A stretch of 62,886 bases of DNA from NCBI GenBank assembly GCA_038321315.1, contig JBBQEX010000043.1, positions 1 through 62,886 on the forward strand. The letters are read 5' to 3'. The position numbers were made by a program, and so were the translations under genes. The notes beneath the pieces are model-generated. The model was given only the letters and a program-made list of their open reading frames with translations, did no database searches and had not been told where the DNA came from. Origin of the DNA: Haliangiales bacterium (GTDB lineage Bacteria > Myxococcota_A > Polyangia > Haliangiales > Haliangiaceae). Positions 31,943 to 32,841 of the stretch are shown one piece after another. The stretch's first letter is position 1. Every line of letters starts with the position of its first letter.

Positions 31943-32758
31943 ATGAAAAAGGGTGCTGGACGCAATCGGATGATCGCGATGATCGGGATCGCCGGGGTCG
32001 CCGGGCTCGCGCTCGGCTTCATCGTGCGACCGTTGATCGCCCCGCCGAGCGAGCTCGGCGAGCTCGAGAGCAAGGTCGCGGCCTCGGACAAGTCGCTGAA
32101 GACCACGAAGGACAAGGCCGAGTTCCTCGAGAACGAGAACAGCGAGCTCAAGAAGGCCGGCGAAGATCTCCAGAAGAAGCTGACCGACGCGCAGACCGCG
32201 AAGTCGAGCCTCGAGTCCAAGGCCGCCGATGTCGACAAGAAGGCGAAGGAGATCGCCGACGTCGAGGCCAAGCTGAAGGCGACGGTCGATGCGGCGTCGG
32301 GATCGGTCTCGCACGAGGGTGACGAGATCCACCTCCAGCTCGTCGACAAGGTGCTGTTCAAGCTCAACGACGATCAGCTCACCGACAAGGGCAAGCAGCT
32401 GATCGACAAGGTCGCCGCCGCGCTCAAGGACATCCCCGACAAGCAGATCTGGGTCCAGGGCCACACCGACGATCAGCCGATCTTCAATCTGCCGGCGCCC
32501 AAGCAGCCGCCGGTGAAGAAGGGCCAGAAGCCGCCGCCGCCGCCACCGCCACCGCGGTTCGCGACCAACTGGGAGCTGTCGGCCGCGCGCGCGCTCAACG
32601 TCGTGCACTACCTGCAGGACGTCGGCAAGGTCGACCCGACGCGCCTCGCCGCGCTCGCGTTCGGCCAGTACCGACCGCTCAGCCGCGACAAGGCGTCGAA
32701 CCGGCGCATCGAGATCGTGCTGTATCCCAAGCGCGCCATCGTCGAGAAGAAGAAGTGA
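31943..32758 (+). CDS. OmpA/MotB-family protein: N-terminal TM, coiled-coil region, OmpA_C-like domain with an inserted poly-Pro stretch.
   Basis: TM MIAMIGIAGVAGLALGFIV. OmpA_C motifs IWVQGHTDDQP...NWELSAARALNVVHYL...NRRIEIVLY. Eight consecutive Pro. Confidence 0.7.
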   Translation: MKKGAGRNRMIAMIGIAGVAGLALGFIVRPLIAPPSELGELESKVAASDKSLKTTKDKAEFLENENSELKKAGEDLQKKLTDAQTAKSSLESKAADVDKKAKEIADVEAKLKATVDAASGSVSHEGDEIHLQLVDKVLFKLNDDQLTDKGKQLIDKVAAALKDIPDKQIWVQGHTDDQPIFNLPAPKQPPVKKGQKPPPPPPPPRFATNWELSAARALNVVHYLQDVGKVDPTRLAALAFGQYRPLSRDKASNRRIEIVLYPKRAIVEKKK

Positions 32759-32841
32759 GGGCAGCGCCCTCACGACGCGAGCAGCTCGCGTCATGAAGAA
32801 GTGAGGGCAGCGCCCTCACGACGCGAGCAGCTCGCGTCATG
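32749..32841. repeat. Perfect tandem duplication (2 x 46 bp). Each unit carries two GC hairpins (gtgagggcagcgccctcac and gacgcgagcagctcgcgtc). It lies between the convergent OmpA-like and response-regulator genes and probably acts as a duplicated bidirectional terminator.
   Basis: Units at 32750-32795 and 32796-32841 are identical. Unit 1 overlaps the OmpA-like stop codon. The response-regulator stop is 10 nt beyond unit 2. Confidence 0.8.

Follow-up and report, generated by a model that had tools for sequence, protein, structure and literature searches.

A tandemly duplicated double-hairpin array, apparently of insertion origin, at the junction of two convergent genes in a Haliangiales bacterium

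Results

Organisation of the convergent junction

The window analysed in this study corresponds to an entire MAG contig of 62,886 bp, assembled from short reads, of a Haliangiales bacterium known from one sample only; the contig is also seen in run SRR19962015. On its plus strand, an OmpA/MotB-like gene that encodes an OmpA-family domain (31943-32758; the start is uncertain between 31787 and 31943, and the NCBI call is 319 aa long) faces a response-regulator gene carried by the minus strand (32851-33627; 258 aa in the public record). The OmpA-like gene ends with a TGA at positions 32756-32758, while the stop codon of the regulator reads CTA on the plus strand (32851-32853), which leaves a gap of 92 nt between both stops. 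The initial annotation had described the regulator as a dual-REC protein. This holds for one REC domain, which is above the Pfam threshold, but the match of the second stays below the cut-off (21 bits versus 30, E-value of 3e-4), so that the C-terminal half (32854-33210, minus strand) is better described as a degenerate REC-like region. The best named homologues belong to Kofleriaceae or Myxococcales MAGs, which would probably make the source, an uncultured organism, a Kofleriaceae-like myxobacterium. Relatives keep a conserved neighbourhood composed of the regulator, a protein of about 150 aa and a PP2C phosphatase; the downstream neighbour of the regulator shows no conservation in more distant relatives.

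The gap is occupied by a tandem array that is offset by 10 nt into the OmpA-like gene. Tandem Repeats Finder (TRF) ranks 32749-32846 as the top array of the window, with a period of 46, 2.1 copies, 100% matches, no indels and a score of 196. Unit 1 (32749-32794) and unit 2 (32795-32840), which were retrieved both by TRF and by a mismatch search, are identical, each being composed of GAAGAA, hairpin 1 (GTGAGGGCAGCGCCCTCAC), hairpin 2 (GACGCGAGCAGCTCGCGTC) and AT. They are followed by a third GAAGAA (32841-32846), up to which TRF extends the array, and then by ATAACTAA. GAAGAA is thus found at 32749, 32795 and 32841, forming a 6-bp direct repeat on either side of each 40-bp core; the last one can be seen as a target-site-duplication-like repeat or as a slippage microhomology. 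With up to 3 mismatches allowed, the 46-mer has no other site than these two in the 62.9-kb contig, and none of 100 shuffles contained a match. These data confirm the perfect tandem duplication of a 46-bp unit that had been noticed previously. They also support the proposal that it arose recently by a slippage-type event. Indeed, the perfect identity of the units suggests that the duplication is recent, and identical head-to-tail copies with one short direct repeat at the n+1 borders have the form of a slippage-type duplication, which the GAAGAA microhomology at 3 of 3 unit borders fits. At the unit borders (32793-32804 and 32839-32850, plus strand), we noted two mini-ORFs, ATG AAG AAG TGA and ATG AAG AAA TAA (Met-Lys-Lys-stop), for which no ribosome-binding site is evident and which are probably a coincidence of AT, GAAGAA and a stop codon.

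The TGA of the OmpA-like gene lies within unit 1, in the stem of hairpin 1, as expected from the overlap of unit 1 with this stop codon that was initially reported at the convergent junction. Downstream of the array, the ATAA at 32847-32850 (plus strand) presumably retains the former last base of the OmpA-like coding sequence, followed by its former TAA stop. We also considered that changes in copy number might cause phase variation at the C-terminus of the OmpA-like protein, and rejected it: with the stop codon inside unit 1, arrays of 0, 1 or 2 units all yield one and the same product. An effect of the array on the C-terminus of the regulator is also ruled out, the regulator stop preceding the array, and a promoter scan found none within the array.

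Hairpins and predicted folding

Hairpin 1 is located at 32755-32773 (copy 1, with the OmpA-like TGA in its 5′ arm) and 32801-32819 (copy 2), and hairpin 2 at 32774-32792 and 32820-32838. Both 19-mers form a perfect 8-bp stem closed by a 3-nt loop, with predicted energies of -13.4 kcal/mol for hairpin 1 and -11.9 kcal/mol for hairpin 2, which is in agreement with the two strong hairpins per unit of the initial annotation. On either strand, a single unit is predicted to form two stacked hairpins with an energy of -28.2 kcal/mol (z-scores of -5.5 and -4.8), and the whole 131-nt junction reaches -73.7 and -74.2 kcal/mol on the two strands (z-scores of -9.3 and -8.1 versus shuffles). In the two-copy state, the predicted fold also allows the copies of hairpin 2 to pair together, giving one long helix. 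Perfect 8-bp hairpins as such occur at chance frequency on this GC-rich contig (38 observed, 16-46 in Markov controls); the non-random features are the adjacency of the hairpin pair, its non-coding position and its perfect duplication. Membership in an Rfam family was rejected: a permissive scan of 31500-34000 only retrieved look-alikes of eukaryotic miRNA precursors, caused by the long helix, the best of which scored 26 bits for a gathering score of 67.

Support from an independent assembly

In the Logan k=31 assembly of SRR19962015, a contig of 1,318 bp ends in ...TTCTTCATGACGCGAGCTGCTCGCGTCGTG / ...TTATTTCTTCATGACGCGAGCTGCTCGCGTCGTG. It stops on the final base of the 31-mer whose first base immediately precedes the repeat, and its final 30 bases are exactly those with which the repeat opens on this strand. 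In a two-unit genome this 30-mer has two predecessors, a T from the unique flank and a C from the previous unit. Since a compacted de Bruijn graph must branch where a 30-mer has two left neighbours, the break of the Logan contig is then expected; a one-copy genome has no branch at this place, so the reads must come from two or more units in tandem or from an additional copy at another place. Queries with the predicted start or with the NCBI 319-aa product returned no record of an OmpA-side Logan contig.

Comparison with relatives

The protein collection contains no conspecific strain, the nearest sequences being at 86% and 84% amino-acid identity. In the closest relatives, the 92 bp are absent and the convergent stops are 0-7 nt apart. 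Indeed, in two ENA metagenome contigs (L002 and L003), the OmpA-like gene ends with ...GAG AAG CCG AAG AAG TAA and the regulator stop comes 7 nt further on, without hairpins. Their regulator is 86% identical at the amino-acid level, and the OmpA side about 90% identical at the nucleotide level, as counted by hand over the first ~84 aligned columns, the nucleotide identity being somewhat lower on the regulator side. In a JGI contig (L088) encoding an OmpA-like protein with 84% amino-acid identity, 0 nt separate its stop from that of a different convergent gene. More divergent regulators are found with a 4-nt overlap with the convergent neighbour (L086, 73% amino-acid identity) or with an unrelated and unstructured spacer of 69 nt (L009, 64%).

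When 32749-32840 are removed in silico, the junction becomes ...ATC GTC GAG AAG AAG AAA TAA CTA...; this 92-bp deletion retains the IVEKKK* C-terminus, the stop now being a TAA that abuts the regulator stop. The 92 bp can thus be considered as an insertion in this lineage, as they are absent from the closest relatives and as their deletion restores the EKKK end with touching stops. As the ancestral junction would have been essentially without spacer, the hairpins could not evolve in place through point mutations and would have arrived as a block. This insertion origin is new with respect to the initial annotation, and a single unit acting as a resident terminator, later duplicated, is not supported, since the whole 92 bp are inserted where the stops of the relatives otherwise abut. 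The sequence comparisons thus point to a real, recent, lineage-specific and frame-preserving double-hairpin insertion that was followed by a microhomology-bounded tandem duplication.

Search for further copies

Searches of the 62.9-kb contig that tolerated up to 3 mismatches returned hairpin 1 and hairpin 2 at no further place, and the unit is likewise confined to the array. No 11-mer of hairpin 1 recurs elsewhere on the contig, and the matches of hairpin 2 correspond to a common coding-like GC motif; a neighbouring sequence as the source of the insert was therefore rejected. The core pattern of the hairpin junction (24 fixed bases, loops free) had zero matches in 185,579 species genomes (one per species), in JGI metagenomes and in viral contigs, and blastn of the junction against plasmids and phages gave no match. 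The many dispersed copies that, according to the initial annotation, would reclassify the array as a REP-type element were therefore seen in none of these collections nor in the contig itself. These searches cover the contig and public collections from which the source MAG is absent, since the core pattern did not retrieve the source contig itself among the species genomes.

The less specific hairpin-1-only pattern (16 fixed bases) retrieved at least 120 metagenome loci, and among the matches listed all contexts are unrelated, mostly low-GC contigs with different flanks, many of them from human-gut assemblies, with neither hairpin 2 nor GAAGAA beside the hairpin. About 17 of the loci listed share a conserved sequence of ~50 nt, with variants, around GTGTTAGTGAGGGCAATGCCCTCACTAACAC (including L089, L100, L104, L122, L131, L135, L137, L139, L150, L164 and L168). 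Nearly all of them are low-GC (37-45%) metagenome contigs, several from human-gut assemblies, and this sequence is an unrelated recurrent hairpin element caught by the hairpin-1 pattern. Our search of the literature on REP elements in myxobacteria returned nothing relevant.

Terminator-like signals on each strand

On the minus strand, the RNA of the regulator would successively contain the stop codon, UUAUUUCUUCAU, hairpin 2′, hairpin 1′, CUUCUUCAU, hairpin 2′, hairpin 1′ and CUUCUUCUUCUCG. A stable hairpin is thus present close to the gene, the first one beginning 12 nt past the regulator stop. A simple terminator scan flags both copies of hairpin 1′ on this strand, with tails TTCTTCATGA and TTCTTCTTCT. 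In canonical terminators, the hairpin runs directly into 7-9 nt of U-rich sequence. The U-rich tail UUCUUCUUCU, directly 3′ of hairpin 1 copy 1 in the regulator transcript (32745-32754, minus strand), is the antisense of Lys codons of the OmpA-like gene, and a weaker U-rich tail, UUCUUCAUGA, stands 3′ of hairpin 1 copy 2 (32791-32800, minus strand). Within their first 8 nt, UUCUUCUUCU contains 6 U and UUCUUCAU 5 U, both being interrupted by C and both passing the simple scan. The sites with TTCTTCTTCT and TTCTTCATGA are the only terminator-like sites with an 8-bp stem in the 60 kb scanned (1-60000), the others having stems of 5-6 bp; overall, these sites are at chance level (15 observed versus about 14.6 expected).

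The plus strand differs: its hairpins lead into AUGAAGAA instead of a U-tract, and the scans detected no site on it. Bidirectional terminators carry an A-tract on one side of the hairpin and a U-tract on the other, so that both transcripts end in U. Here, both flanks are of the GAAGAA type on the plus strand, and an A-tract upstream and a U-tract downstream of one hairpin are not found. Hence, the absence of a U-tract that had been noted for the array is correct for the plus strand only, hairpin 1 being followed by TTCTTCTTCT or TTCTTCATGA on the minus strand, and a bidirectional terminator, as first proposed, is not supported, terminator-like sites being restricted to the minus strand. In vitro, the RNA polymerase of mycobacteria, which are also high-GC, terminates at imperfect U-tracts and not at hairpins devoid of a U-tract (Czyz et al., PMC3993855), which supports a terminator on the minus strand and opposes intrinsic termination on the plus strand. 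Based on these signals, a minus-strand terminator for the regulator transcript is plausible. The weakness of the minus-strand U-tracts (5-6 U of 8, interrupted by C) counts against such an activity.

Several convergent gene pairs of the contig abut or overlap (for example at 36414-36421), and the source genome apparently does not depend on canonical intrinsic terminators. A terminator is also not obviously needed at this junction, since the stops of close relatives abut or overlap. In another relative (L084; regulator with 76% amino-acid identity), a different hairpin, GAGGCCGGGA...TCCCAGCCTC, followed by TTTGTTCAT is found at 3254-3290, directly 3′ of the orthologous regulator gene, with a fold that surpasses shuffles only modestly (z-score of -2.2); this hairpin with its UUUGUUCAU tail weakly suggests that a terminator is used at the 3′ position of the regulator.

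Other features of the contig

The contig also harbours two copies of an 84-bp near-perfect palindrome with 42-bp arms and 2 arm mismatches each. One is located at the contig start, upstream of a thiolase gene (10-93). The other (22854-22937) is flanked by a DUF4267/AraC pair and an alpha/beta-hydrolase gene that diverge from each other; the genes downstream of the copies are unrelated. By manual count, the copies differ by about 6 substitutions and a 2-base indel over ~95 aligned columns (roughly 92-94% identity). Their 26-nt core had no match in viral contigs. This sequence has the appearance of a dispersed palindromic element or of a long operator common to both sites. The thiolase itself is present as two ORFs, 18-1037 (Thiolase_N) and 1071-1418 (Thiolase_C), with 33 nt between them, which may reflect a frameshift, a pseudogene or a sequencing error. 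Finally, two pairs of adjacent paralogous segments (11219-12100 with 12829-13707, and 46841-47763 with 48604-49532) share 70-83% identity at a distance of about 1.6-1.8 kb and probably result from tandem gene duplication.

Discussion

The array shares traits with several known kinds of elements. Like canonical intrinsic terminators arranged in tandem, it places a GC-rich hairpin and a U-rich run 3′ of the regulator stop on the minus strand, two in series; it differs from them by its interrupted U-tracts (UUCUUCUUCU, UUCUUCAU), by two stacked hairpins per unit and by a plus strand without U-tract, and its activity is only predicted. With bidirectional terminators it has in common a hairpin shared by two convergent genes across a short gap, but its flanks are purine-rich on the plus strand, so that U/C-rich tails are present on the minus-strand RNA only. 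The REP and BIME sequences of enterobacteria and pseudomonads are also palindromic extragenic units of 20-40 nt, often clustered, found at 3′ ends and between convergent genes, and the two 19-nt palindromes of each unit at a stop-to-stop junction correspond well to this description. However, REPs occur as tens to hundreds of dispersed copies, whereas the array has no further copy in the contig and the public collections; neighbours in BIMEs are usually inverted, whereas our units are direct. Moreover, the typical REP head is GT[AG]G and that of hairpin 1 is GTGA, and REPs go with a cognate RAYT transposase, to which the array is not known to be linked. As for MITEs, the 6-bp direct repeat is present at the array, but the ends (GTGAGGGC... 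/ ...GCGTCAT) are not inverted repeats (4/8 bases), the core is only 40 bp long and no other copies were found in the contig or in the collections searched.

Among tandem repeats, MIRUs lie at many loci between co-directional genes and are not known to be double palindromes. The array resembles MIRUs and VNTR minisatellites as tandem intergenic units of ~50 bp, in a high-GC bacterium, inserted at a gene boundary while sparing the neighbouring gene (PMC12548453). It differs from MIRUs by its stop-to-stop location, its palindromic nature and its single locus within the contig and the collections searched. MIRUs are repetitive elements of many mycobacteria that insert at start codons with a coupled small ORF (PMC12548453). 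Judging from these likenesses, in its action the array would be most like a tandem imperfect intrinsic terminator operating on one strand, or a REP-type 3′ stem-loop.

We propose the following history for this junction. A 40-bp module (GTGAGGGC...GCGTCAT) would have landed at the final codon of the OmpA-like gene, with GAAGAA on its left and ATAA on its right, bringing or creating a second GAAGAA; by supplying G and TGA as the new last base and stop, the insert would have left the OmpA-like protein unchanged. The 6-bp bracket fits equally a target-site duplication and a microhomology. The 46-bp module, including one GAAGAA, would then have been duplicated head-to-tail. The GAAGAA copies would most likely have been the sites of replication slippage or of an unequal exchange, an event that the hairpin-forming DNA lying between them may have helped and that would explain the presence of GAAGAA at all three borders. 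As for the function, a GC hairpin placed beside antisense Lys codons would at once create a terminator-like site, the distal one, with the better U-run, and after the duplication the regulator gene would have gained two tandem imperfect intrinsic terminators. In the OmpA-like transcript, the role of the hairpins would be limited to that of a 3′ stem-loop barrier, through protection from exonucleases, pausing or Rho-assisted stopping. Together, both roles could insulate the convergent genes from one another, where they would otherwise run together. In E. coli, REP hairpins combine partial termination with mRNA stabilisation, REP325 protecting the 3′ end or slowing the polymerase, and REPs located between convergent genes correlate with a higher expression of both (bioRxiv 10.64898/2026.03.23.713779). 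We give this account as a whole, from the insertion of a 40-bp double palindrome and its doubling by slippage to imperfect terminators on the minus strand and a 3′ barrier on the plus strand, a probability of roughly 0.45. The layout of the array, its lack in relatives and its frame-preserving geometry are directly observed; the account is tentative since we infer the order of events, the slippage mechanism and the terminator or stabiliser activity from the sequence.

Other origins have to be considered. The array could be a functionless scar, that is filler or templated DNA from break repair or template switching that was duplicated by slippage and tolerated because both frames are intact. 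This is doubtful, although it agrees with the presence of the array in one lineage alone, with relatives that function with junctions of 0-7 nt or with overlapping ones, and with a contig devoid of general reliance on hairpin terminators; the perfect identity of the units also means that the array is young, with too little time for selection to be visible. However, random filler would be unlikely to place two perfect 8-bp palindromes side by side just ahead of a U-rich run, and the C-terminus of the OmpA-like protein is exactly kept, which could nonetheless be survivorship. That the copy number itself is wrong, with a true genome of one unit or another number and a short loop mis-resolved, seems very improbable. 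While the window is a short-read MAG contig, assemblers struggle with palindromic repeats and the copy number rests on assemblies and not on counts in reads, the loop needs a unit-to-unit junction k-mer (…GTCATGAAGAAGTGAGG…) that does not exist in a one-copy genome. In addition, the independent k=31 assembly of SRR19962015 stops exactly at the repeat boundary, as two left contexts predict, and the array, with its 98 bp, is shorter than a typical read.

A second genomic context would explain the break of the Logan contig equally well, and leads to a further origin, in which the module belongs to a dispersed family, REP/BIME-like or miniature, mobile and palindromic, that inserted at GAAGAA twice, or once before being duplicated. 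This origin would account for the arrival of 92 bp of outside sequence in a spacer-less junction, for the 6-bp direct-repeat bracket that resembles a target-site duplication and for a palindromic, extragenic element at gene 3′ ends, and another palindromic element with two dispersed copies exists on the same contig. We nonetheless consider it unlikely. A family as dense as the 84-bp palindrome would have shown up on the 62.9-kb contig, where no further copy of the hairpins or of the unit is present, and the core pattern is without match in genome, metagenome and viral contigs, as is the junction in plasmids and phages. Furthermore, the at least 120 hairpin-1-only loci carry neither hairpin 2 nor GAAGAA among the matches listed, terminal inverted repeats are lacking, 40 bp is below MITE size and the head of hairpin 1 departs from that of typical REPs. 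A more specific version, in which the array would be the first example of a tiny mobile palindromic element of Kofleriaceae-like Myxococcota that targets purine-rich GAAGAA at gene ends, generates a 6-bp duplication, spares the host protein with a stop codon of its own, acts as an instant terminator beside antisense Lys codons and piles up in tandem, is quite improbable.

The feature is a small local oddity and no novel type of system is involved; it would gain in value only if the module turned out to be a dispersed mobile family. The array could serve as a copy-number marker between strains. If the history that we favour, an insertion followed by slippage, is true, this locus would be a natural example of a spacer-less junction that acquired a transcript-end structure in one step and then doubled it, and it would help thinking about the origin of terminators in high-GC genomes, where canonical ones are few.
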